Shown here: piece by piece, positions 21,370 to 35,175 of the stretch
Position numbering within the stretch: the stretch's first letter is position 1
How the letters are laid out: the number at the start of each line of letters is the position of its first letter
Notes under the pieces: generated by a model
Databases searched by the model: none
What the model saw: the letters and a program-made list of their open reading frames with translations, nothing else
Told to the model about the DNA's origin: nothing
Made by a program: the position numbers and the translations under genes
From: Kiritimatiellia bacterium
GTDB lineage: Bacteria > Verrucomicrobiota > Kiritimatiellia > RFP12 > UBA1067
Direction of reading: 5' to 3'
DNA length: 64,000 nt
NCBI GenBank assembly: GCA_045656285.1
Contig: JAZOQY010000041.1
Coordinates: forward strand, 129,404-193,403

Positions 21370-21837
21370 TCATTTGTCCTTTTCGCCGAGGACGCACTTG
21401 ACCTCGCACTCGGCGGCAAGCTCATCTCCGACATACCCCTTGAGGGCGAAAACGCCGAGTCGCGAGCGCACCCGAACGTTTTCGACAACCGTCGTGAGTT
21501 TGTCGCCGGGTCTCACCGGGCGGCGGAAACGGGCATTGTCGACGGCGGCAAGAAGGAACGAAGCCTCCTTGTCCTGGCCGCCGAGAGCATTGCGGGCAAC
21601 AAGCGCCGCACCAGAAACCTGGGCCATCGCCTCAACCAAAACGACACCCGGGACCACAGGAAAATCAGGGAAATGACCTTTGAAAAACTCGTTTTTCTCC
21701 ATCGTGAACGTATATTCGCCCAACGCACCCGTCTCATCGGCGGAAATAAGGTTGTCGACGAACAAGAACGGGCTGCGGTGCGGGAGCAGTTCTATGCCGG
21801 GTTTATTGTACGAGTTTTTGAACTGGGGAAATTCCAT
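21370..21837 (-). CDS. fabZ: 3-hydroxyacyl-ACP dehydratase
   Basis: LPHRSPFLFVD…GHFPDFPVVPGVVLVEAMAQ hotdog motif. Start re-picked at MEFPQF (ATG 21835–21837). Confidence 0.85.
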   Translation of the reverse strand: MEFPQFKNSYNKPGIELLPHRSPFLFVDNLISADETGALGEYTFTMEKNEFFKGHFPDFPVVPGVVLVEAMAQVSGAALVARNALGGQDKEASFLLAAVDNARFRRPVRPGDKLTTVVENVRVRSRLGVFALKGYVGDELAAECEVKCVLGEKDK

Positions 21838-21856
21838 ATCGGTTTTCCTTGGGTTT

Positions 21857-23146
21857 TCAGACCTTTTTGAAGACGAGAATGCCGTTGTGGCCGCCGAATC
21901 CGAGCGAACTCGAAAGCGCGACACGAATCTCGCGCTCGACGCCCTTGTTGGGCGTGTAGTTCAAATCGAGCGGAGTTTCGCCGTTCTCGACATTGACTTC
22001 GAGATCGGGATTCTCGTAATTGATCGTGGGAGGAACGAATCCCTCGTGGATGGCAAGAGCGGTGATCGCGGCCTCGAGCGCGCCCGCCGCGCCGAGAAGG
22101 TGCCCGTGCATGGACTTGGTGGAAGAGATGTTGATCTTCTTCGCGCCCTCCTCGCCGAAGATGCGCTTGAAAGCCTTGGTCTCCATCTGATCGTTGAGAT
22201 GGGTCGATGTTCCGTGCGCGTTGATGTAATCAACCGTAGAGCGGTCTTCTATGCCGGCATCCTTGAGCGCGATCTCGATGGCCTTTACGGCGCCGTCGCC
22301 AGACGGATCGGGAGCCGTGATGTGGTACGCGTCGGACGTCGAACCGTAACCGGCGAGCTCGCAGTAGACGCGGGCGCCGCGAGCCTTGGCGTGCTCCTCG
22401 GATTCGAGAATGAGAACGGCGGCACCCTCGCCCATGACGAAACCGTCGCGGTCGGCATTGAACGGACGGCACGCCTTCTCGGGCGTATCGTTGAACTTTG
22501 TCGAAAGAGCGCGCATTCTCATGAATCCGCCGACGGCGAATTCAAGAACAGCCGCCTCCGTGCCGCCGGCGATGACGACATCGGCGCGGCCTGCGCGGAT
22601 CATGTCGAGCGCGAAGCCAAGCGCATCCGTCGAGCTGGCGCAGGCTGTGGTGACAACCTGAGCGGGGCCCTTGGCGCCAAGCGCGATAGAGACGTTGCCG
22701 GCAGCCTCGTTGGCGATAAGTTCGGGAATCGCCAAAGGAGAGAGGCGTTCAGGGCCACGGTCGAAAAGCGTCTTGTAGCTCTCGCCGGTGACTTCAAGAC
22801 CTCCGATGCCGTTGCCGATGAGAGTGCCGACGCGATCCATGTCGGGCTTGGACTCTTCGGTATAGCCGGCATCGCGCCAGGCCTCGACGGCCGCAGCGAC
22901 GGCGTACTGGGAGAACAGCGCCATGTGACGGGCTTCGCGCTTGTCGATAAGCCCGCCGTCGATTGCATAAGACTGGAAATCCTTCACTTCGCCGGCGACC
23001 TGGCTGGTGCAGCGCGATGCATCGAACTTTGTGATTTTGCCGACAGCCGGAGTGCCCGCCTTGAGCGAAGCCCAGGCCGCGTCTTTGCCGTTGCCGTTGG
23101 CGCACAGCATTCCGATACCAGTAATCATTACTTTCTTCATCTTCAA
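21857..23146 (-). CDS. fabF: β-ketoacyl-ACP synthase II
   Basis: MKMKKVMITGIGMLCANG… Active-site context …VTTACASST…, …HGTST…, …GHLLGAAG…. Confidence 0.9.
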   Translation of the reverse strand: MKMKKVMITGIGMLCANGNGKDAAWASLKAGTPAVGKITKFDASRCTSQVAGEVKDFQSYAIDGGLIDKREARHMALFSQYAVAAAVEAWRDAGYTEESKPDMDRVGTLIGNGIGGLEVTGESYKTLFDRGPERLSPLAIPELIANEAAGNVSIALGAKGPAQVVTTACASSTDALGFALDMIRAGRADVVIAGGTEAAVLEFAVGGFMRMRALSTKFNDTPEKACRPFNADRDGFVMGEGAAVLILESEEHAKARGARVYCELAGYGSTSDAYHITAPDPSGDGAVKAIEIALKDAGIEDRSTVDYINAHGTSTHLNDQMETKAFKRIFGEEGAKKINISSTKSMHGHLLGAAGALEAAITALAIHEGFVPPTINYENPDLEVNVENGETPLDLNYTPNKGVEREIRVALSSSLGFGGHNGILVFKKV

Positions 23147-24270: not shown

Positions 24271-26013
24271 TTATCTGGAGAAATGCGATCGGTGCACCGA
24301 AGCGTCAACCAGAATGTTTTTCTGGCGGTTTTTCTCGCCCAAAGAACGCGCGACATGTACGCGGCGGCCGCTGACGGGATCGATCCCCGTGTAATACATG
24401 CATGTCGCGGCGGTAAGGGGGGTCGGCGTGAAAATCTGGACCTGCTCGGGGTTGAGCTTGAGCTCCCTCGTCGCGAAACGCTTGAGCTCGCGCATGTCCG
24501 CTTCCGTGCATCCCGGATGCGCCGCGATGAAATAATACGTCAAGAACTGCTTTTTGCCGAACCGCCTGTTGGCGGCCTCGAATTTTCTTTTGAACTTCAA
24601 AAGGCTCTCGACGCCGGGCTTTCCCATGAACTCCAGGACGCGGGGAACAACATGCTCGGGCGCAAGCTTGAGCTGGCCGGACACATGATGCCTGGCGATC
24701 GCGTCGATGTACCGGTCGCCGCATGCGCTGTCGGCGGCGACAAGGTCGGGACGGATGCCGCTGGCGACAAAGACACGCCTGACGCCCGGTATCGAGCGCA
24801 ATTTCTGAAGCAGATCAAGCTGAGGGCGATGATCGACCTTCAACGAAGGACATACGGACGGGAAAAGGCAGGCTTTGTTTCTGCACGCGCCTGCCGACGC
24901 CTTTCTCGCGCAATCAAACCCGTACATGTTCGCCGTCGGACCGCCGACATCGCTGACAATCCCCTTAAAGCGCGGATGATCAAGAAAACGCTTCACTTCG
25001 TTCACGATGCTTTCGGGCGAACGGCTCACGATCCGACGCCCCTGATGGACGGCTATGGCGCAGAATCTGCATCCGCCGTAGCAGCCGCGATGGGTGGTGA
25101 CGCTGAAACGGACGGTGTCCAGAGCCCTTATCTCCCCCTGGCTGCGGATCGAGGCGGGCGCGTCCAGCGTCCATTTGATGTCATGGACGGCGTCCAGCTC
25201 ATCACGCTCCAGCGGCGGAGAAGGAGTGTTGTGAACCAGGTAGCGATTGTCGACTTTCTGGATCAGCACCCTGGCCGTCACGGGATCCTGATTGTCGGAG
25301 AAAAGCCTGAACGCATCGGCAAACGCCTTCCTGCCTTCATCCGTGGCGGCGCTGACTTCCGCATAGGACGGCAGCACCGTCGCATTCTCCGGCAAAACGA
25401 AATTCTTTTCGCTTGCCATGTAGCAAAGCCCCCTGATCGACCGCCAGTCGCGTCCGTTCTTGAGCGCATCGGCGAATTCAAGGACCGTCCTCTCGCCCAT
25501 TCCGTATGAAAGCGCGTCTGCCTTTGCGTCGCATACGATCGGTCGGCGCACTTTATCGCTCCAGAAATCATAGTGGCTTATGCGCCTCAAACTTGCCTCC
25601 ACTCCGCCCAGAAGGATGGGTTTTGCCGGCTTCCACGCAGAACGGATCGCGTTGGAATAGACTATCGCCGCACGGTCGGGGCGGCGGTTGTTCTCGCCGC
25701 CAGGCGTGAAATCGTCATGATGGCGCCTTTTCCCCGACGCCGTGTAATTGGCGACCATCGAATCGACGCATCCGGGGCTCACGCCCCAGAAAAGCGCCGG
25801 CTCTCCCAGTTTCTTGAACGCCAGAGGATCGTTCATGTCGGGCTGGCTCAAGACAGCAACGCGATATCCCGCCTTGGCAAGCGTCCGGCCGATCACCGCG
25901 ACGCCGCTGTAGGGCGAATCGATATAGGCGTCTCCGCTCACCAGAATGACATCGGCCTGATCCCATCCGAGCTTAAGCATCTCTTCTCTGGTAACGGGTA
26001 TTGGATCATTCAT
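24271..26013 (-). CDS. ygiQ: YgiQ-family (UPF0313) radical SAM protein
   Basis: N-terminal …DVILVSGDAYIDSPYSGVAVIGR…VAVLSQPD… plus a radical-SAM core …RGCYGGCRFCAIAVHQGR… Start re-picked at MNDPIP (ATG 26011–26013). Confidence 0.8.
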   Translation of the reverse strand: MNDPIPVTREEMLKLGWDQADVILVSGDAYIDSPYSGVAVIGRTLAKAGYRVAVLSQPDMNDPLAFKKLGEPALFWGVSPGCVDSMVANYTASGKRRHHDDFTPGGENNRRPDRAAIVYSNAIRSAWKPAKPILLGGVEASLRRISHYDFWSDKVRRPIVCDAKADALSYGMGERTVLEFADALKNGRDWRSIRGLCYMASEKNFVLPENATVLPSYAEVSAATDEGRKAFADAFRLFSDNQDPVTARVLIQKVDNRYLVHNTPSPPLERDELDAVHDIKWTLDAPASIRSQGEIRALDTVRFSVTTHRGCYGGCRFCAIAVHQGRRIVSRSPESIVNEVKRFLDHPRFKGIVSDVGGPTANMYGFDCARKASAGACRNKACLFPSVCPSLKVDHRPQLDLLQKLRSIPGVRRVFVASGIRPDLVAADSACGDRYIDAIARHHVSGQLKLAPEHVVPRVLEFMGKPGVESLLKFKRKFEAANRRFGKKQFLTYYFIAAHPGCTEADMRELKRFATRELKLNPEQVQIFTPTPLTAATCMYYTGIDPVSGRRVHVARSLGEKNRQKNILVDASVHRSHFSR

Positions 26014-26060
26014 GGCATCGCCCCAACACATTCTCGCTTGGTTCAAGCATCCTGCAAGCA

Positions 26061-26999
26061 TCAGAATCCCGGAAGATTCATCTGTCCCGACACGCAGACT
26101 TTGCGTCCTTTGGAAAGCGTCCGGTCCGAGGTATCGTACACTACGAATTTTATCCCGTCGAAACGGCGGGAGAGTTCAGACCTTATGTAATTCGATACGC
26201 TTTTGACATTACCCTTGTCGTCATCGGAGAACCCGATTGCGACCGATCTGCCGAGACCGCCCGTACGTTGGAGCATGTGGAAGACATGCTCCACGAAATC
26301 GCGTATCGCGAACTCCTTGGCGAGTTCCGGCTTTGCGGCCGTCGTGGCCCTGGCGAGCTTCTCCTTGTAGACGGGATCGTTGGCCATACGCTCCTTGAAC
26401 CCGTCGTACGTGACCGCCGCGTAACGGCACATCCCCAGATAGTAATCGAGCTCCTCTTCGTCGGTGCCGAACGTTTCGACCTTGTCGAGAAACTTTCTGT
26501 ATCCGCGAAGATTCGACATCATCGTTTCGCGCTCGAGCGGGGTTAGAGCGTTCTCTATGAAGACGCGAACCGCCTTCTCTATTGTCGCGGGAGCGTGCCC
26601 GCGCGCTGTCACGATGGCGAATATCCGACCTTCGATCAGCGTCTTGCGGAACGTATTGTAGCTCGGAGAAGGCTTCTCGCCGTTTGAAACCTTGGCCAGC
26701 GCCGCAAGCGTATCCTCGATGAAGCGGTTCGGCTCGTCGTCATTTTCGGGATCGGCGAAATTCCTGAACGCCTCGTCCCAGCCGCCGTTCGCCGGCGGAC
26801 GGTAGTGATCGGTGTCGGTTCTCACGAGCGCGAAGGTCGAGGTCGAAACCTCGACGCTCTTCCATACGCCATCCTCGCCTTTATGCTCCATCCTTATCTT
26901 GGTGGGCATGTGAAGGATGTTGTCGTCCCAATCGAAGATGTAATACTTGAAGTCGCGGTTGGCGACCTCTTCGTTCAGGTACGGAACGGGGCGCGTCAC
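26061..26999 (-). CDS. Hypothetical protein, divergent HAD-superfamily hydrolase-like
   Basis: Motif I-like YIFDWDDNIL (position 5 is Asn, not Thr/Val). Motif II-like AIVTAR. Motif IV-like GFSDDDKGN. No closer family recognised. Confidence 0.4.
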   Translation of the reverse strand: MTRPVPYLNEEVANRDFKYYIFDWDDNILHMPTKIRMEHKGEDGVWKSVEVSTSTFALVRTDTDHYRPPANGGWDEAFRNFADPENDDEPNRFIEDTLAALAKVSNGEKPSPSYNTFRKTLIEGRIFAIVTARGHAPATIEKAVRVFIENALTPLERETMMSNLRGYRKFLDKVETFGTDEEELDYYLGMCRYAAVTYDGFKERMANDPVYKEKLARATTAAKPELAKEFAIRDFVEHVFHMLQRTGGLGRSVAIGFSDDDKGNVKSVSNYIRSELSRRFDGIKFVVYDTSDRTLSKGRKVCVSGQMNLPGF

Positions 27000-28249
27000 A
27001 GCGCATCCCCTTCGAAATCGAACCCGGCCGCCCGCTCCAGGCGGACGCGGCAGAAATCGCCGACCGCGAGACGGCGGGCCTTCGGAGAATCGAGAAGATA
27101 CACGACGCCGTCGACATCGGGAGCCTGGGAACGCATGCGGGCGACGCCGGGAGCCACAACAAGCGCGTCGTATGCCTCACCCAGCATCTTCCTGGACTTC
27201 ACCTTCCAGAGCTTCTTCGCTTCGGCCATGACAATCCTTTCGCGCTCTTCGGCAATCTTGCGCGACGGGCGGCCCGACATCTTCGCGCCCTTGGTGCCCT
27301 TCTCGGGACTGTACGCGAACGCACCGAGCCGATCGAACTGCATGCGCCTCAAATCCGCAAGAAGCTCGTTGAAACGGGCTTCAGTCTCGCCGGGAAAGCC
27401 GGTCATCACGGTTGTGCGAAGCGTAATTCCGGGCACTACGTCGCGCAGGACCTCCGCCGCCACACGAGACGCCTCGATCGCGCCCTTGCGGTTCATCTTG
27501 GCGAGGATTTCGGGAACGGTATGCTGGAGCGGAACGTCGACATACTTCACCGCATGCTTCGCATTGTTGAGCCAGTCGACGAATTCCTCCGTGATCTCGC
27601 TGGGATAGCTGTAGAGGACACGAATCCAAAACTCCCCCTTTAGCGCGTCAAGCTTCCAAAGCAGATCGCTCAACCGGGTCTTTTCCTTGAGATCGCAACC
27701 GTAAAGCATGGGGTCTTGAGCCACGATATTCAGTTCGCGGCAGCCGCTCTTTATGAGCGCCTTTGCCTCGCGAATGATATCCGCCATCGGGCGCGAACGG
27801 AATCTGCCGCGAATGCCCGGTATTGCGCAGTAGGCGCACTTGTGGTTGCAGCCCTCGGCGATCTTGAGATACGCAAACGCCTTTCCGGTAAACCTGAGCT
27901 CCGGCATTTTAGGCTCGATCCATTCGGACGGAACTCCCTGCCAGACATCGACGCCGGGGAATTTCGACTTCGCTTTCGGATATCGCTGAGGGTAGCATCC
28001 CGTGACGACGACCTTGCCGAAATTGCCGCTGTTCTTGAGCGCGACGGCGCGGGCGATCTCGCTCTCGGCCTCTTCACGGGCCGAGGCGATGAACGAACAC
28101 GTATTGACGATCACAACATCTGCGCGGTCGGGATCGGGCGAAAGTACGCAGCCCTCCTTGAGAAGGTTGCCCGCCATAACCTGAAGATCGACTGCGTTTT
28201 TGGCGCACCCGAGAGATACCAGCGACAACGATGTTTTTGCTTTAGCCAT
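26996..28249 (-). CDS. rimO: Ribosomal protein S12 methylthiotransferase (MiaB-family radical SAM)
   Basis: N-terminal MTTase domain …LVSLGCAKNAVD…VIVNTCSFI…, a radical-SAM CNHKCAYC motif and a TRAM-like C-terminus. ATG at 28247–28249. Confidence 0.85.
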   Translation of the reverse strand: MAKAKTSLSLVSLGCAKNAVDLQVMAGNLLKEGCVLSPDPDRADVVIVNTCSFIASAREEAESEIARAVALKNSGNFGKVVVTGCYPQRYPKAKSKFPGVDVWQGVPSEWIEPKMPELRFTGKAFAYLKIAEGCNHKCAYCAIPGIRGRFRSRPMADIIREAKALIKSGCRELNIVAQDPMLYGCDLKEKTRLSDLLWKLDALKGEFWIRVLYSYPSEITEEFVDWLNNAKHAVKYVDVPLQHTVPEILAKMNRKGAIEASRVAAEVLRDVVPGITLRTTVMTGFPGETEARFNELLADLRRMQFDRLGAFAYSPEKGTKGAKMSGRPSRKIAEERERIVMAEAKKLWKVKSRKMLGEAYDALVVAPGVARMRSQAPDVDGVVYLLDSPKARRLAVGDFCRVRLERAAGFDFEGDAL

Positions 28250-28258
28250 GACTGTTCA

Positions 28259-28267
28259 ATTATATCA
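28259..28267 (-). promoter_or_regulatory. Extended −10 TGATATAAT, 9 nt upstream of the rimO ATG (candidate leaderless promoter). Its TGA is the stop codon of the upstream ketosynthase (KS) gene
   Basis: Minus-strand sequence reads TGATATAAT-TGAACAGTC-ATG. Confidence 0.4.
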
Positions 28268-29407
28268 CAATCTTCCGAAAATCACACTCGCATTGCTGCC
28301 GCCGAACGCAAAGGAATTGGAAAGCGCGACGTTCACCTTTACGGCGTTGCCCTTCTCGGCGATCCTGAATGGGGCAATGGAGGAATCGACCTCGTCTGTG
28401 ACATGGGCAGGCACCCCGGCGCCTTTCTGGATCGCCAGGCAGCACAGAGCCGCCTCAAGGGCCCCCGCCGCCCCCAACGCGTGCCCGACGAGAGGCTTTG
28501 TCGAGCTGCACAGGACATCCGCTCCGAAAACACGCGACACCGCCGCGCATTCCATGGAGTCGTTGTATGTCGTTCCTGTTCCGTGGAGATTCACGTAATC
28601 GACCTCGCCCGGCTCGAGATTCGCATCGGCAAGAGCCGCGCGCATGGCCGCCTCGGCTCCGCGGCCTTCGGGATCGGGTGCCGTCAAATGGTAGGCGTCC
28701 GAGGTTTCGCCGACTCCCAGAAGCGCCACGCCGCGCTCTCCTTCATCGGCTTTCCTGAGTATGAAGAGCGCGACGCCCTCGCCGAGGTTTATCCCGTCGC
28801 GACCGGGGGAAAGCGGCCTTGTCAAAGTAGACGAAACAGCCTCAAGGGCGCTGAACCCGTTTACGACAATACGCGTCATCGCATCGGCTCCGCCGACCAG
28901 GACTGCGTCGCAGATCCCGTTTTCGATCAGGCGCCGCGCGGAGGCGAAAACTTTAGCGCTGGACGAGCATGCCGTCGACACGGCCCAGCACGGCCCGCCC
29001 AGAGCGCACTTTTCTTTTATGCGCATGGCGGGATAGCTCATGTCTATCCTGTCCGAAGGCCTGAATTCCTCAAGCGTGGAATTGCTGGTCCCGAGAACAA
29101 CGCCGATGCGTTCGGGACTGCAGCGCCTTTTCAAATCTTCTACGGCGGGCATGAGATTCGAAAGCGCGACATCCACAAGCGCGCCGATACGGGTGGGCGA
29201 GGCCGCCAGTTCCTCATCCGTAAGCGGCACCGACCCGAAAAACGTCTTTTCGCCCGATGTTATTATGCCGTCAAGCTCTTTCATGCCGGACGTATCGCCG
29301 GCTGTCATGCGCGCGTGCGTTGATTCGTTATCGCGCCCGAGAGCGCTTACGATCGTAAAATCGGAGATCAGATAACGGTTTTTATTCTCTTTATCGGCAC
29401 TTTCCAT
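28265..29407 (-). CDS. β-ketoacyl-ACP synthase (FabB/FabF-like ketosynthase (KS)) belonging to a specialised lipid cassette
   Basis: KS fold with Cys-His-His (…VSTACSSS…, …YVNLHGTGT…, …GHALGAAG…). Start re-picked at MESADKENK (ATG 29405–29407); the upstream part of the track ORF is Arg/Cys-rich and unlike KS N-termini. Confidence 0.8.
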   Translation of the reverse strand: MESADKENKNRYLISDFTIVSALGRDNESTHARMTAGDTSGMKELDGIITSGEKTFFGSVPLTDEELAASPTRIGALVDVALSNLMPAVEDLKRRCSPERIGVVLGTSNSTLEEFRPSDRIDMSYPAMRIKEKCALGGPCWAVSTACSSSAKVFASARRLIENGICDAVLVGGADAMTRIVVNGFSALEAVSSTLTRPLSPGRDGINLGEGVALFILRKADEGERGVALLGVGETSDAYHLTAPDPEGRGAEAAMRAALADANLEPGEVDYVNLHGTGTTYNDSMECAAVSRVFGADVLCSSTKPLVGHALGAAGALEAALCCLAIQKGAGVPAHVTDEVDSSIAPFRIAEKGNAVKVNVALSNSFAFGGSNASVIFGRL

Positions 29408-29417
29408 AAGCAACCCT

Positions 29418-32354
29418 TCATTGGACGTTCCACGTAAAATCCTGAAGCGGCCAGGCATCGCGCAGCTTAAGCAGTTCGATCGCATACGCCCTGGACATCT
29501 GCCTGGCTTCGGGCGGCATGCGCTTGACGAAAACACGGTATTTGCGACCGCCCGTCGAAATGCACGAAACAAAATAGACAGGATGCTCCAGCGCGGCGGC
29601 GAACCTGAAGACGCCTTCGGCCAATTCGACCTTCCGGCCGTCGACCTCCTCGATGCGCTTGCGCCCGAAGCTTCTGTCTCCGGCCATCAATATCGCATCG
29701 CCATCATCAAGCCTTTCCCCGGCGAAGAACACAGTGCCGGGATTGAACTCCGAAATCGGATGGATAACAACCTTGTTGCGCCGCTGATGCTTAAGGTAGA
29801 AGGCGTTGAAGACACCCGTGCGAGCAAACTCCATCCATGCGTGGAAAGTCACTTCGCATTCGCCGAGCGCGGCAAGGACCTCGATCGTTCCGACATGGGA
29901 GGAAAGGACAAAAACACCCTTCTTTGCGCTTACGTCGTTTATGAAATCTGCGGCATCCCGAGAATCGTCAAGCTCCACAACGGGCTTTGAGCGTCCGTCT
30001 GCCATAACGACCATCTTGTCCGCAAGCGAGCGCGTAAAGTTCATGACCTTGCCGAGCTTCGGAGAAGCCCTTCTCACGCCCGGCGAACATATCCACATGA
30101 AAAAGCCCGTGCCGGAAGCCGCAAAATGGAAAAACCCCAAGCCGAAAACCCTGTATATCGCCCAGATCAGCGCAAGCCCGAACGGAGTAGACGCGTATTC
30201 GGAAGTATCTTTGCGGGGAACGAAGAGAAGCGAAATCATGTACGCGACGGGCAGGCCGACGGCAAGCGAAAGCCCGAAAGCCCTGACGACAGGGAATGAA
30301 ACGAAAACGAGCGAACCGAAACCTACAAAGCTTGTCAAAAAGGCAAATGTCACGCTCCTGACGGAGTTCTCTTCGCCGGAACGCGCGAAAACCGCGTAAT
30401 CGACACCCATGCCGGCAAGCAGGAAAAGCGCCAAAAGATGGAAAAGATTGACGCCGACCCCCGTCAACGACAGGAATCCGAGCACTGAAACCACCGCCGC
30501 GAGCGAAGGGAATGCGACCGCAAACGCTTTGCGCCCGAAAAGCGCAACAAGAACAATCACCATCGCAACAAGCGAAAGCAACAGCCACAAGCCGATTTCT
30601 TCGGTCCACTCATCCAAAATCCCTTCAAGCGTTTTGCGCGGCTGACAGAACGAGACGCCTTCAACCGCCCCTTCGGACGTCAACACCTCCGGTCGCTGCA
30701 CCGACGAAAGAATCAAAGCTCCGTCCCGCACAAAGAGACTCTTCAACGAATCGGGAACATCGCTCCAAGTCCAGGCTCGAGGTTCGTCCGGGAGCGTCAA
30801 TTCCTCCAATCCGAGTCGGCTTTTGACATATTCGCCCTGCTCTTTGTAGAGAAGCACGACAGCCTCATGCTGCGACTGCCGCTTTTTGAGAGACGGCATG
30901 AAACGCGAAAGGCATGGCACGTCCGGAGGGAGTTCCAAGGACTCTTCCCTTTCGAGAAGCGTCTCAAGATCATCCGGACCGTCCGTCACGAGAAAGCCGC
31001 GGTTTTCGTCAGCCGAGCCGTTTATTTCCGCCAGCGTGCGCTCGGCGTCCGCAAGTTCTTCAGGCGGAGCGTAAAGAGATGTAATGGCGGTCTTGAACCC
31101 AAAGGAACAAAAGCCGGCAAACGAAGCGGCAAACGCGACAACTCCAAAAAAACGCAAGATCTTAACAGGCGGAGAAATGCGCTTGACGGAAGACAAATCG
31201 CCGTATCCGTCAGAGGGAAAGAGGAAAAGCACACAAAACAGAGCCGCCGCAAGCCCGACGCCGATGAATACGCCGCTTTGGCGAAGCACGGGGATGGACG
31301 AAAACAAAAGAGGCAGAAGAGTAATCTCGGTAGTGACAAAAGAAACGACAAGACTTCTTGCCGTCGCGCGAACATCGCCGGAACGGCGCAACAGCCAATG
31401 ATATCCGTAATCGACGACAAGCCCCAGAAGAGTCGTTGCGAAAAGCACTGTCACCACATGGATTTCCGAAAAGACAGACACCAGCGCCAAAGAGCCTGTC
31501 AACGCGGAGAAAAGCAGCAGATAGGCCAAAAGAAAAATCGATTTCAAGGAACGGAACACAAGCAAGGACAGCAAAAGGACAAACATCAGGGAAACGAAAC
31601 CCAGAACTGTCGTCTCGAATTTGCATTTGGCGGCAGAATACGCGCTGTGCATCGGAATTCCGCAGGCGGATGCCGAGACGCTCTCGCTCCTGACATTCTG
31701 AAGAACGTTTTCCAGACGCCCGCGGAAAGCGATAAGCGCATCCATATCGCCAACCAGAGAATCGCCAAGCTCCATCGCGAGCAGAATGTGATGTTCGCCA
31801 TTTTTTTCGGCCGTCAGAAAACCGGTGGAAAAATCGGGCTTGAACGACGACTCGGAGTTCGCAAACGCCTTTGCAAACCCGTCCGTCAGCAGAAAAGGAT
31901 CTTCGTCAACCGGAAACAGCGGCGGCACAATCGACTGGAAAGCGCTCTTGACGGCTCTGCGAGCGATCTTGGAACGTCCTTCAGCCGAGGCCAGCAGTTC
32001 AGCATCGCCCGACGAGACAAGCCCGGAATCATTTTTCCTGCAAAGGTCGGCTATTTCCTCGACCTCGCCTCCGTCTATCCGGAATCTCACGCTTTTGCAT
32101 TCATTGGCCGGAAGATTATCTGCAAGATATTCCGCCGCTTTCAACGCATCCTGTCGATTTCCGGAGGAAACCAGAACAGGAACGACATCATCAGACCCGT
32201 TGCGCACAGCCTCCGGAACGGAATCCGCGGCGGAGCCCACCAAATCATAAAGTGAACTTTTAAGCTCTACGCGTCCAAAAGCAAACACGCACGCCAGCGC
32301 ACACAGGAGCGCCGCGACCGGAGCAGCGGCTTTAGCTGTTCGTTTCAGCGTCAT
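29418..32354 (-). CDS. MMPL-family RND-like exporter fused at its C-terminus to an LpxL/HtrB-like acyltransferase domain
   Basis: aa 1–~715 carry two 6-TM bundles with MMPL signatures (…GLVVDYGYHWL…, …AGMGVDYAVF…) and two large periplasmic loops. aa ~720–978 carry a hydrophobic anchor plus …KKGVFVLSSHVGTIEVLAAL… (HX4E), collinear with the LpxL-like gene at 19260–20078. Confidence 0.75.
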   Translation of the reverse strand: MTLKRTAKAAAPVAALLCALACVFAFGRVELKSSLYDLVGSAADSVPEAVRNGSDDVVPVLVSSGNRQDALKAAEYLADNLPANECKSVRFRIDGGEVEEIADLCRKNDSGLVSSGDAELLASAEGRSKIARRAVKSAFQSIVPPLFPVDEDPFLLTDGFAKAFANSESSFKPDFSTGFLTAEKNGEHHILLAMELGDSLVGDMDALIAFRGRLENVLQNVRSESVSASACGIPMHSAYSAAKCKFETTVLGFVSLMFVLLLSLLVFRSLKSIFLLAYLLLFSALTGSLALVSVFSEIHVVTVLFATTLLGLVVDYGYHWLLRRSGDVRATARSLVVSFVTTEITLLPLLFSSIPVLRQSGVFIGVGLAAALFCVLFLFPSDGYGDLSSVKRISPPVKILRFFGVVAFAASFAGFCSFGFKTAITSLYAPPEELADAERTLAEINGSADENRGFLVTDGPDDLETLLEREESLELPPDVPCLSRFMPSLKKRQSQHEAVVLLYKEQGEYVKSRLGLEELTLPDEPRAWTWSDVPDSLKSLFVRDGALILSSVQRPEVLTSEGAVEGVSFCQPRKTLEGILDEWTEEIGLWLLLSLVAMVIVLVALFGRKAFAVAFPSLAAVVSVLGFLSLTGVGVNLFHLLALFLLAGMGVDYAVFARSGEENSVRSVTFAFLTSFVGFGSLVFVSFPVVRAFGLSLAVGLPVAYMISLLFVPRKDTSEYASTPFGLALIWAIYRVFGLGFFHFAASGTGFFMWICSPGVRRASPKLGKVMNFTRSLADKMVVMADGRSKPVVELDDSRDAADFINDVSAKKGVFVLSSHVGTIEVLAALGECEVTFHAWMEFARTGVFNAFYLKHQRRNKVVIHPISEFNPGTVFFAGERLDDGDAILMAGDRSFGRKRIEEVDGRKVELAEGVFRFAAALEHPVYFVSCISTGGRKYRVFVKRMPPEARQMSRAYAIELLKLRDAWPLQDFTWNVQ

Positions 32355-32947
32355 TTATCTTTCCAGAGCAAATGCGTCGAGCGGGAAATTTCCTTGAACT
32401 CGATCTTCGTGATTCCGCCGCCTTTGGTGCGCATGACGATACGGTCAACCGTACTGTCGCCGACAATCTCGACTTCCTCCATGATTCTGCGAGCCCTCCA
32501 GTTCGAGGGCTTGAAAACGGCCTTCCATCCGCCATTCTCCCCGGGCGAGAACTCCATGTCGACCATTGCCTTGAACGCGCCAGAATCACCGCCGAGAAAG
32601 GCATCGCACGCTTCTCGTATGCGGGCATAATGAGGAAGTTCCGAAAGCGATTTCTCGCGACGCCCGTCCTCGTCGGCAAAAACCATCTTATCCTTCGTCA
32701 TGGAAATCCTTTCGGCGAACGGAAAGCGCACATCCCATACAATGCCCTTTTGGGAGGCGCACGAAACGAGCCCCGTCGAAACAAGAGTCCGATCGGAACC
32801 CGCGAGCTTCCGTTCCATCTTCCACGAAGCGTCAGCATCCAAAGCACGACGCAGCGCAGATTCGCACCTGGAGCGGAGAGACGGCTGCTCAAGCGCCATC
32901 GACGTGCAGGAAAACAGCAGCGCAAACCCCAAACAAAGGTATTTCAT
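32351..32947 (-). CDS. LolA-like periplasmic lipoprotein-carrier-fold protein (putative, ApeL-like)
   Basis: Signal peptide MKYLCLGFALLFSCTSMA. About 200-aa mature protein of LolA/LppX-like size and β-rich composition, sitting between the AMP-ligase and MMPL genes as in aryl-polyene (APE)-type cassettes. Start re-picked at ATG 32945–32947, forming an ATGA overlap. Confidence 0.45.
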   Translation of the reverse strand: MKYLCLGFALLFSCTSMALEQPSLRSRCESALRRALDADASWKMERKLAGSDRTLVSTGLVSCASQKGIVWDVRFPFAERISMTKDKMVFADEDGRREKSLSELPHYARIREACDAFLGGDSGAFKAMVDMEFSPGENGGWKAVFKPSNWRARRIMEEVEIVGDSTVDRIVMRTKGGGITKIEFKEISRSTHLLWKDK

Positions 32948-34260
32948 CGACTTTTCCTTTCCCAAATTCCCGAAGCGCAAGGCCCCCGGAGACCAACCAG
33001 CGAAAACGACCATGAGTCATCGCTCTTTTTGTCTATCTGCAAAGACACTTCTGTCCCCGGGAAAATGACCTTCTGGAATTTCAGCTGGCGCAGAATGCAT
33101 GCGTCAGGAAACGAAGAAAACGCCTGTCGCGCAAAATGCCTTATGAAATAAAGCTGCGCCACGCCGGCGAGAACCGGGAACTTCGGGAAATGCCCGTCAA
33201 AACATTTCATGTCCGGAGGAAACACAAACTTGGCCGACAGGCGATTCGCGCCGAGAGACCACCCGGTCACCGCCGGTTCGCAGCACCACATGTCCAGCAT
33301 TGTCCGAACTGAAGCTACGGTTGTCTTTCCCTGCTCGTTCACCGGCAGCGCGCGGACAAATCTCATGCGGCGCGGAAACGCGGCCTGTTCGACAAGCGGC
33401 GCAATATCGCGTCTCAAACGGGCAGCCAAGCCGCCGACAGTGCCTTTAGCCAGCGCTTCGAGGCCTTCCGGCGAAAGCACGATCAGCGCACCCGTCCTCG
33501 CGACGGCGCCGGAGCAGACTTCGACTCGCACGCGATCTACGAGAGGATGGGACTTGAAGGCCTTTTCAACAGCGGAAAGCGAAACGTACTTCTCGAGTAT
33601 TTTGACGCGACGGTCCAAGCGCGCTCCGAGGACGAAAGTTCGGTCAGAAGTGAATTTTATCGAGTCGGTCATGACGAAAGGACGCGACATGGCGTGGGGC
33701 GAGTCGACCTCAAGGCCGCCCTCGGAAGAAAGACGCGCGTTGACGACAGGACAGAGCGTCCATTCCTCGCCGTTTATCCTTCTGCGCCAGGCCACGGAGC
33801 CCGCCTCGGTCGAGCCGTAAATTTCAAACGGAGAAGTTCCGAGCGTTTCATGGATCGCCTTCGACGTTTCTTCCGCGAGCAGGCTGCCGGAAGTCACGAT
33901 CGAGACGAACATCCCCTTCAGCGCCGCGAAATCCGGATGCCCGAGCGCTTTTTCGAGGAACGACGGCGTCGTCACAAAAAGAATCTTTCCGTATTTCGCG
34001 CACAGGGCGGAAAGTTCCTCGACAGACGTCACGATCGCCGGATCGACGGTCGAGCCGGCGATCGCGGGCGCACGTACGCGCCACAACGCTCCGTACATGT
34101 GCTCGGGACGCACGGTCGAAACCACAACGGGAGCCCGGCACCAGATGTCCGGAAAGGAATTCACAAGCTGAGTCGCATCTGCCATAAGCGACTCTTCGGT
34201 TCTCACGATGCGTTTTGCATCCCCCGTAGAACCGGACGAATGGAAAATCACCTCAGACAT
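32944..34260 (-). CDS. Adenylate-forming (AMP-binding) enzyme lacking the usual N-terminal region, fused to a C-terminal FabA/FabZ-like hotdog dehydratase domain
   Basis: Begins directly at the P-loop-like IFHSSGSTGDAKRIV. Also carries YGSTEAG, …GKILEKYVSLS…, and a C-terminal subdomain …ALPVNEQGKTTV…. aa ~330–438 read FDGHFPKFPVLAGVAQL, to be compared with fabZ GHFPDFPVVPGVVLVEAMAQ in this window. Confidence 0.7.
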   Translation of the reverse strand: MSEVIFHSSGSTGDAKRIVRTEESLMADATQLVNSFPDIWCRAPVVVSTVRPEHMYGALWRVRAPAIAGSTVDPAIVTSVEELSALCAKYGKILFVTTPSFLEKALGHPDFAALKGMFVSIVTSGSLLAEETSKAIHETLGTSPFEIYGSTEAGSVAWRRRINGEEWTLCPVVNARLSSEGGLEVDSPHAMSRPFVMTDSIKFTSDRTFVLGARLDRRVKILEKYVSLSAVEKAFKSHPLVDRVRVEVCSGAVARTGALIVLSPEGLEALAKGTVGGLAARLRRDIAPLVEQAAFPRRMRFVRALPVNEQGKTTVASVRTMLDMWCCEPAVTGWSLGANRLSAKFVFPPDMKCFDGHFPKFPVLAGVAQLYFIRHFARQAFSSFPDACILRQLKFQKVIFPGTEVSLQIDKKSDDSWSFSLVGLRGPCASGIWERKSR

Positions 34261-34639
34261 TCAACACTCTCCTGCGGTAGATATATTCACCGAGAAACAG
34301 GCCGCCCATCAGCAGATACGACAGGAAACCGTTGTAAAAAGCCCATACGCCGGGAGAAAGAAAAACGCTCGCCAGGCTCGCCATGAAATTAAATGCAAGA
34401 AACACGGTCCATACAACCGTCAGCTTCCTGCAGTAACGAACGCCTTTTTCGTCCAGATCACCCCGCATTCTCCTGGCGAAAGCCTCGCAAACGGGAGTCC
34501 GGAAAAGCGAAACGAAAAAAACGAAAAAGGCTATCAGGTTCATGATGACGGGATAAAGCCTGAAATATATTCTGCCTTTGAAGAAATAAACTCCCCAAAC
34601 GGCAAGAACAGGCAATATCGCCGTCAGAACTCGCTTCAT
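34253..34639 (-). CDS. Small four-TM membrane protein of unknown function (ApeG-like position)
   Basis: 128 aa, hydrophobic. Translationally coupled: ATGA with the ACP stop, 8-bp overlap with the AMP-ligase gene. Confidence 0.5.
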   Translation of the reverse strand: MKRVLTAILPVLAVWGVYFFKGRIYFRLYPVIMNLIAFFVFFVSLFRTPVCEAFARRMRGDLDEKGVRYCRKLTVVWTVFLAFNFMASLASVFLSPGVWAFYNGFLSYLLMGGLFLGEYIYRRRVLNV

Positions 34640-34893
34640 TTACCCTGCTCGTTCATCAAACGGAGGACAACGTCGGCGACGTCGCCTATCGTGCGGATCG
34701 ACTTGAAATCCTCCGCCTTAACCTTGAGCCCGGTCTGATTCTGCAAACGGACGACAAGATCCACAGCATCGATGCTGTCAAGATCAAGATCCTCGAAAAG
34801 ACGGGACTCCGGAGTAAGAGTCGCGGCATCGCATTCGAACTCTTCAACCAAAACGGACTTGATCGCCTCTACGGCCTCTTCCCTGGTCTTCAT
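34636..34893 (-). CDS. Acyl carrier protein
   Basis: 85 aa. The phosphopantetheine-attachment motif is LDLDSIDAVDLV. A GGAGGA SD lies inside the preceding ACP gene. Confidence 0.85.
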   Translation of the reverse strand: MKTREEAVEAIKSVLVEEFECDAATLTPESRLFEDLDLDSIDAVDLVVRLQNQTGLKVKAEDFKSIRTIGDVADVVLRLMNEQGK

Positions 34894-34896
34894 TGT

Positions 34897-35175
34897 TCAG
34901 TCCTCCAGCTGGATATCCGCATTGGCCGCAATAAAGCTTGCAAGCGTGGACACGGACTTGAAATGCTCCTTGTTCTCTTCGGAATTCGCTTTGAACTTGA
35001 CCTGGTATTTCTTTCTGAGCGCCACTCCGATTTCAAGAGCGTCAATGCTGTCAAGCCCGACACCGTCGCCGAACAGAGGCTTGTCTGATTCAATGTCGGC
35101 AGCAGTAAGTCCATCCATCTCGACGGAGTTCAAAATAACCTGCCTTATTTCCTCTTCTAATTCAACTCTTTTCAT
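34897..35175 (-). CDS. Acyl carrier protein
   Basis: 92 aa. Attachment motif GVGLDSIDALEI. Confidence 0.85.
   Translation of the reverse strand: MKRVELEEEIRQVILNSVEMDGLTAADIESDKPLFGDGVGLDSIDALEIGVALRKKYQVKFKANSEENKEHFKSVSTLASFIAANADIQLED

Follow-up and report, generated by a model that had tools for sequence, protein, structure and literature searches.

An N-terminally shortened ApeH fused to an ApeI-like hotdog domain in an APE-like gene cluster of Kiritimatiellia

A stretch of 64,000 nucleotides from contig JAZOQY010000041.1 of a Kiritimatiellia bacterium (assembly GCA_045656285.1), referred to here as the window, was found to encode on its minus strand a 438-aa protein that joins an adenylating enzyme of the ANL superfamily to a C-terminal hotdog domain (Table 1). 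The protein is in all probability a bifunctional ApeH-ApeI of an aryl polyene (APE)-like outer-membrane-lipid cluster of gut and rumen Kiritimatiellia. Its adenylating part begins at the phosphate-binding loop (P-loop) and is missing approximately 135 residues that precede this loop in all characterised relatives; judged by its motifs and its predicted structure, it is nevertheless probably a minimised enzyme that is still active. It is this N-terminal loss that is new, no description of an N-terminally shortened ApeH having been found in the literature searched, and the truncation is the sole unusual element of the protein. The ApeH-ApeI fusion is ordinary and already known, and nothing new is added to it here.

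Identification of the protein as ApeH-ApeI

The genes of the window were labelled using phmmer with all eighteen Ape proteins of Escherichia coli CFT073, the APE cluster of which has been studied experimentally. The minus-strand order that resulted (ApeE-ApeF-ApeG-ApeH/ApeI-ApeL-ApeM-ketosynthase) agrees with that of the E. coli cluster. As the E. coli proteins label the genes of the window in matching order, the 438-aa protein is assigned, by sequence and gene order, as the ApeH-ApeI pair of an APE-like cluster. Its placement in such a cluster by an initial annotation, made from the DNA alone, is thus borne out by both gene order and pairwise matches to E. coli.

Adenylation domain and its missing N-terminal region

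The initial annotation had also described an ANL adenylating enzyme that starts at the P-loop, and this was confirmed with Pfam and with BLASTP against ApeH. Residues 4-159 matched the AMP-binding profile PF00501 (E 1.1e-14) from position 166 to 330 of 384, and nothing in the protein corresponded to the ~165 positions ahead of these, while the top NCBIfam match, TIGR02372 (a short 4-coumarate-CoA ligase model), was covered at positions 97-385 of 386 only. Residues 8-322 aligned with residues 139-448 of E. coli CFT073 ApeH (29% identity, E 4e-34), leaving residues 1-138 of the E. coli protein without a counterpart. The N-terminus of the long form is genuine ANL sequence, with residues 34-285 of E. 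coli ApeH matching positions 5-280 of the adenylation-domain model TIGR01733, and residues 17-281 of the Paraburkholderia protein matching positions 15-279 of PRK07787.

The A3 P-loop (consensus [ST][ST]G[ST][ST]GxPK), the A5 GSTE motif, the A7 aspartate, the A8 hinge (GRxD..K) and the A10 lysine were all identified in the shortened protein; the part of the large domain that lies ahead of the P-loop and holds A1 and A2 (~130 aa in ApeH, ~160 aa in a typical ANL enzyme) was not. Thirteen residues of these motifs (S9, G10, K16, E146, G149, T151, E152, D199, R214, D216, K220, G311 and K312) were invariant in an alignment of 26 diverse short and long forms. All of them were also invariant or nearly so in 118 short-form sequences, with S9 and G10 invariant and K16 invariant or nearly so. 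An AlphaFold2 model of the protein (mean pLDDT 93, pTM 0.86) contained no low-confidence segments, and its best Foldseek matches were MatB, ACSM2A and DltA (E about 1e-17 to 1e-19, ~350-360 aligned columns). The protein is accordingly predicted by this model to have the two-domain ANL fold.

A separately encoded N-terminal ANL piece was searched for using hidden Markov models (HMMs) trained on 10 or on 106 N-termini of the long form, which recovered 8/8 long-form loci serving as positive controls (E <= 2e-15). No such piece was found in the 64-kb window (best E 0.61), nor, with a best E of 0.59, in 504 kb that took in 26 short-form loci along with the window. Supply of the missing piece by another gene can thus be ruled out in the DNA searched. 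A second ApeH-like gene was also not found in the window, which contains only the one.

Start of the gene

The start of the ORF (open reading frame) was examined on the DNA itself. An in-frame TGA (34263-34261) was found immediately 5’ of the ATG (34260-34258), with a Shine-Dalgarno-like AGGAG upstream of it at a proper distance. Between the ATG and the stop of the gene upstream there is an overlap of 8 nt; that gene is read in a different frame, and its product, a membrane protein of 128 aa, is a homologue of ApeG and not ANL sequence. An upstream extension, which the initial annotation had considered, is therefore absent, and extension both in frame and by way of a frameshift is excluded, as the TGA abuts the ATG and the DNA upstream encodes ApeG.

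It is very improbable that the short protein is an artefact, whether of start calling, of a frameshift or of the assembly, or that the gene is a pseudogene derived from an ApeH-ApeI of the normal ~565 aa. The sole support for this lies in the unusual length of the protein. Set against it, besides the TGA and the Shine-Dalgarno-like motif, are the intact apeG that fills the upstream DNA, the recurrence of this start in independently assembled sequences, across more than 118 clusters, and the failure of the N-terminal HMM searches to find an N-terminal remnant in any frame. Moreover, the same length (434-441 aa; ~434-456 aa for all 120 close homologues listed) and the same domains recur in at least 120 clusters at 90% identity, and an architecture shared by so many clusters is not an artefact.

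Distribution and origin of the short form

The closest relatives (54-70% identity) were found in Kiritimatiellia and Lentisphaerae genomes from goat, yak, cattle, horse and human gut. All 118 homologues that were aligned (53-71% identity) begin at the P-loop, and the short form is conserved across Kiritimatiellia/Lentisphaerae, in over 118 sequence clusters. Hundreds of database sequences contain it, annotated only as ‘AMP-binding protein’. Among the best 150 clusters of a wider protein search (see below), sixteen start no more than 40 residues from the P-loop, five more consist of ApeG fused directly to the P-loop start, and two consist of ApeG with a full-length ApeH. The same length and fusion classes were seen to recur in genomes.

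A neighbour-joining (NJ) distance tree of the shared core, with 100 bootstrap replicates, resolved three truncated clades with 100% support each, namely the stand-alone forms of Kiritimatiellia/Lentisphaerae, those of Melainabacteria/Gastranaerophilales and the ApeG-fused forms. A single clade of all truncated forms was rejected, as it appeared in 0/100 bootstraps. The Melainabacteria short clade grouped with the long form of locus L069 in 97/100 bootstraps, and the stand-alone and ApeG-fused Kiritimatiellia clades came together in 17/100. Because the Melainabacteria clade groups with a long form and the truncated forms are never monophyletic, the tree indicates at least two independent losses of the region before the P-loop.

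Short forms were also identified in clusters with a full enzyme set, as in the Melainabacteria loci L030, L048 and L066 (ApeB, C, D, E, F, G, J, K, M, O-P, Q and R). In such otherwise complete clusters, both of Melainabacteria and of the Kiritimatiellia loci L005 and L006, the short form is the sole ApeH. The truncation is, on these sequence comparisons, to be regarded as real and selected.

ApeI-like hotdog domain

The initial annotation had placed at the C-terminus a hotdog domain of ~110 aa with a GHFP histidine motif, and this domain was recovered with Pfam and with PDB entries 3esi and 6qsr_A (ApeI). The ApeI-like family PF22818 gave a score just below its gathering cut-off on residues 344-411 (E 7.6e-6, 26.6 bits against 28.5), and all 120 of the homologues listed have a precomputed PF22818 match. 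The family profile matched 3esi at 2.6e-13 and 6qsr_A at 1.7e-10, while residues 349-409 of the protein aligned with residues 24-84 of E. coli ApeI (34% identity, E 4e-9). Chain A of PDB 6qsr, the 119-aa ApeI of Xenorhabdus doucetiae, was deposited as ‘AMP-dependent synthetase and ligase’, a name presumably carried over from fused ApeH-ApeI homologues.

The domain had been described initially as a FabZ-like dehydratase, with reference to the canonical FabZ of the window (Table 1). This FabZ does carry GHFPDFPVVPGVVLVEAMAQ, as had been stated, and it shares with the protein the hotdog fold and the GHFP..PG.. histidine motif. The His/Glu pair of FabZ, on which the initial annotation had made its reading depend, is however incomplete in the protein, which has Tyr371 in place of the glutamate found in the VEAMAQ helix of FabZ. 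His357 was invariant in the 26 diverse and the 118 close sequences. The position fourteen residues after the histidine varies across the family; FabZ has Glu there, and E. coli ApeI has Asp. Assignment of the domain as FabZ was rejected, as the glutamate is absent and the NCBIfam FabZ model gave an E of 0.0098 and 15.8 bits against a cut-off of 113, PF22818 being the more probable family.

A single active site has been published for the ApeI/ApeP heterodimer, and the His/Glu pattern of the E. coli pair agrees with this: ApeP (L081:35684-36148) lacks the FabZ-type histidine (DGNLPGW) and has the glutamate (ELMAQ), while ApeI (L081:42879-43232) has the histidine. Since His357 is kept, the glutamate is absent and ApeP shows the reverse pattern, the domain is most likely the His-donating half of a heterodimeric dehydratase. 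With Tyr371 at the glutamate position, the acid would have to come from a partner such as ApeP. In the window, the ApeP HMM detected only the canonical FabZ (33.8 bits); the true ApeP genes of the short-form relatives L005 and L006 scored 113-118 bits.

ApeH-ApeI fusion in other bacteria

The adenylating enzyme and the dehydratase had been taken initially to be separate proteins in APE systems. This was found to apply to E. coli and Xenorhabdus only, the two being fused in many genera. Of 1.84 billion representative proteins searched, 3911 matched, and most of the best 150 of these are 555-590 aa long and align over residues ~4-432 of the query, having the same two domains and ~130 extra N-terminal residues. 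In a cluster survey that sampled one genome per species, fused ApeH-ApeI was identified within full clusters of the ApeA-to-ApeR type in Thalassospira, Paraburkholderia, Burkholderia, Pseudoxanthomonas, Chromobacterium, Propionivibrio and spirochaetes. The fusion has been published for the APE cluster of Acinetobacter baumannii (PMC8041823).

The protein of the window resembles the A. baumannii fusion and its equivalents in those genera in its two domains and their order, in its position after ApeE, ApeF and ApeG, and in the invariant adenylation motifs and the GHFP histidine. It differs in the absence of the ~130-aa ANL region that these ~555-590-aa proteins have before the P-loop; their clusters, unlike the window, also have ApeP, ApeQ, ApeC, ApeR, ApeK and ApeD nearby. 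The ApeH and ApeI proteins of E. coli CFT073 and X. doucetiae (the latter represented by PDB 6qsr chain A; see also 3esi) match it in residues and share its gene neighbourhood. In E. coli, however, apeH and apeI are separate genes that overlap by 14 nt; the P-loop of ApeH is preceded by 138 residues, and ApeI has Asp where the fused protein has Tyr371.

Proposed activity of the shortened enzyme

The shortened protein is likely to be still active, because every nucleotide-binding and catalytic motif is kept. Judged by its homology to the ApeH proteins that have been characterised, the ANL part would adenylate a carboxylic-acid starter. The ApeE-like carrier protein, the gene of which lies two genes upstream, is by analogy the likely acceptor of the activated starter (PMC12624758) and would receive it directly on its phosphopantetheine arm. 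The starter in APE systems is 4-hydroxybenzoate, and aryl-acid adenylation with loading of ApeE has been demonstrated for the ApeH of X. doucetiae and A. baumannii only. The hotdog domain would then provide His357 to a heterodimeric dehydratase, the acidic residue of which would have to come from a partner hotdog protein, either one of the ApeP type, which relatives have, or possibly the FabZ of the window. In the lineage of the protein, the ~135 aa before the P-loop have been lost and all nucleotide-binding and catalytic motifs retained.

A solved ANL-like protein that is naturally short is PDB 4gs5 from Dyadobacter fermentans (358 aa; ‘acyl-CoA synthetase (AMP-forming)/AMP-acid ligase II-like protein’). 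Among PDB entries it matches the N-terminal half of the family best, although distantly (E 2e-7 to the family profile), with its residues 41-353 aligning to profile positions 4-323 and its P-loop, HTSGSTGMPK, lying at residue ~44. It differs in having no hotdog domain and in having ~40 residues before the P-loop, possibly including a tag. This entry is a precedent for a short ANL protein; it is a structural-genomics entry, and nothing was found in the literature searched on 4GS5 or on truncated ANL enzymes.

Several observations weigh against an active ApeH-ApeI of an APE-like pathway. The part that is missing makes up roughly one third of the large domain of a canonical ANL enzyme, and the single-sequence PF22818 score is 1.9 bits under the gathering cut-off. 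The cluster is also incomplete: the APE core set comprises apeO/R, apeE/F, apeC, apeI/P, apeQ and apeM (bioRxiv 10.1101/2020.12.19.423268), and in the window ApeE, F, G, H-I, L, M(-J) and O were identified, while homologues of ApeP, ApeQ, ApeC, ApeR and ApeD were not, the only related genes being canonical FabZ, FabF and FabH at a distance of 5-11 kb. HMMs for ApeP, C, K, Q, B, N, A and D gave nothing further in the window. The Kiritimatiellia relatives L005 and L006, which have a short ApeH, do carry ApeP, ApeQ, ApeC and ApeD. Either the remaining APE enzymes are located elsewhere in the genome, or the pathway is a reduced one that borrows fatty-acid enzymes.

The loss of ~135 aa from the large domain, together with a cluster short of many APE enzymes and hence compatible with a degenerating pathway, would also fit an ANL part that is a catalytically dead remnant, serving as a scaffold that carries the ApeI half or docks carrier proteins while another enzyme loads the starter. 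This is considered unlikely. A dead domain is expected to drift, whereas the A3, A5, A7, A8 and A10 residues are invariant or nearly so in the 118 short forms and in independently truncated clades; in addition, short forms serve as the only ApeH of otherwise complete clusters, and the window itself contains no other ApeH-like gene.

Parallel shortening of ApeG

The ApeG homologue of the window was identified by comparison to E. coli ApeG (40% identity, E 4e-22). It is 128 aa long with ~4 transmembrane (TM) helices, compared to 193 aa and ~6 helices for E. coli ApeG, the first ~60 aa (two TM helices, with helix correspondence judged by hydropathy) being absent. An ApeG without these first ~60 aa was found in 17 of 18 short-ApeH loci and in 1 of 47 long-ApeH loci (Fisher 1.7e-13, phylogeny being ignored), an association that rests on two or three evolutionary events. 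The co-shortening was noted for the window and for loci L002-L015, L030, L040, L048 and L066. The exception is L069, the sister of the short Melainabacteria clade, where a short ApeG goes with a long ApeH.

Direct fusions of ApeG to a truncated ApeH, joined at its P-loop start, occur in proteins P0122, P0141, P0150, P0163 and P0165 and in L021 (9689-11311) and L035 (9596-11293). Further arrangements were observed: an ORF for ApeG and truncated ApeH without a hotdog domain in L022, L024 and L031, with a separate ApeI-like ORF just downstream in L031; ApeG with full-length ApeH and ApeI in P0148 and P0208; and truncated ApeH with ApeI and a LolA-like domain in P0126, a single protein of 643 aa.

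Parallel shortening, the 8-nt gene overlap and the ApeG-ApeH fusions together suggest, as a hypothesis, that ApeG and ApeH are physically coupled. The protein would probably be kept at the membrane beside ApeG, since the two genes overlap, are fused in sister lineages and encode proteins of which ApeG is shortened in parallel. Published proposals for the function of ApeG (energy supply for export) are guesses.

A stronger form of this coupling would have ApeG pack against the truncated enzyme in place of the missing subdomain, so that the active species is an obligate ApeG-ApeH membrane complex and not a free minimal ANL enzyme. The overlap of apeG with the start of the ORF, its fusion to the P-loop start, its shortening in nearly all short-ApeH loci and the short ApeG beside a long ApeH in L069 are all in favour of this. 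It appears rather improbable, however, given that so few evolutionary events, uncorrected for phylogeny, underlie the association, that ApeG becomes shorter and gains nothing obvious as a substitute for the lost domain, and that fusions of ApeG with a full-length ApeH also exist. The preferred reading remains a minimised adenylating enzyme that is still active.

Other genes of the cluster

The remaining features of the locus are listed in Table 1. The ORF of the ApeO-like ketosynthase, read from the listed TTG, overlaps the end of the gene for the 978-aa ApeM-ApeJ protein by ~155 nt. Its true start is probably later, because homology begins only at residue ~67-69. In the 978-aa protein, the exporter corresponds to residues ~16-716 and the acyltransferase half of ApeJ to residues ~716-955. 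This fusion, which would tether the lipid-attaching acyltransferase to the exporter, was also identified at a length of ~975 aa in the Kiritimatiellia loci L001, L005, L006, L008, L011 and L013-L015. In the Gastranaerophilales locus L030 (6013-7638, minus strand), the ApeO ketosynthase and the ApeP dehydratase half form one 541-aa protein, a further instance of the frequent gene fusion in such clusters.

The APE-like run ends after ApeO. Downstream of it are two radical-SAM genes, an ORF, FabH, FabF, FabZ, HisD, an LpxL-like acyltransferase and a family 2 glycosyltransferase (GT2). The genes between the APE-like run and FabH/FabF/FabZ lie on the same strand and consist of a MiaB/RimO-like methylthiotransferase-type gene, an ORF of 312 aa without any family match and a YgiQ-type gene.

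Table 1. Features of the shortened ApeH-ApeI protein and of genes near it (residue numbers refer to the 438-aa protein)
Feature	Position in window	Strand	Remarks
ApeE-like carrier protein	34897..35175	-	92 aa; two genes upstream of ApeH-ApeI
ApeF-like acyl carrier protein	34636..34893	-	85 aa
ApeG homologue	34253..34639	-	COG4648-type membrane protein, 128 aa, ~4 TM helices
Shine-Dalgarno-like AGGAG	34269..34273	-	8 nt upstream of the ATG of ApeH-ApeI
ApeH-ApeI, whole ORF	32944..34260	-	N-terminally shortened ApeH (aryl/acyl-ACP synthetase, ANL superfamily) with ApeI-like hotdog domain
ANL motif A3/P-loop, residues 8-16	34213..34239	-	SSGSTGDAK; first motif of the protein
Remaining ANL large domain, residues 1-214	33619..34260	-	A4-like EHMYG (H54, G57), A5 IYGSTEAG (E146, G149, T151, E152), A7 Asp199
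ANL small C-terminal domain, residues 215-322	33295..33618	-	A8 hinge (R214, D216, K220), A10 catalytic Lys312 (GK 311-312)
ApeI-like hotdog domain, residues 328-438	32947..33279	-	Central helix 366-380, catalytic-type His357 in FDGHFP, Tyr371 at the FabZ Glu position
ApeL/LolA-like protein	32351..33013	-	220 aa
ApeM (MMPL/RND-type exporter) with acyltransferase half of ApeJ	29418..32354	-	978 aa
ApeO-like ketosynthase (PRK09185 type)	28265..29572	-	PRK09185 399.8 bits, cut-off 407
MiaB/RimO-like radical-SAM methylthiotransferase-type gene	26996..28249	-	
ORF without family match	26061..26999	-	312 aa
YgiQ-type radical-SAM gene	24271..26061	-	
Canonical FabZ	21370..21924		

Implications

It may be, although this is put forward tentatively, that the third of the ANL large domain lying before the P-loop is dispensable for adenylation and carrier loading. 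According to this proposal it would have been lost at least two times, in Kiritimatiellia/Lentisphaerae and in gut Melainabacteria, each time with loss of ApeG helices 1-2, with ApeG being fused to the P-loop start in a third clade. If so, ApeG would be a membrane docking partner of the starter-loading enzyme and the ‘minimal’ ANL core of ~320 aa would be a working enzyme. The short form suggests that such a core exists naturally, which is of relevance to the engineering of adenylation enzymes and to the role of their N-terminal subdomain, while the co-shortening and fusions of ApeG provide a first testable hint that it may work physically with ApeH. The short form is also a marker of a reduced APE-like lipid cluster, one found widely among uncultured Kiritimatiellia of the gut and rumen.

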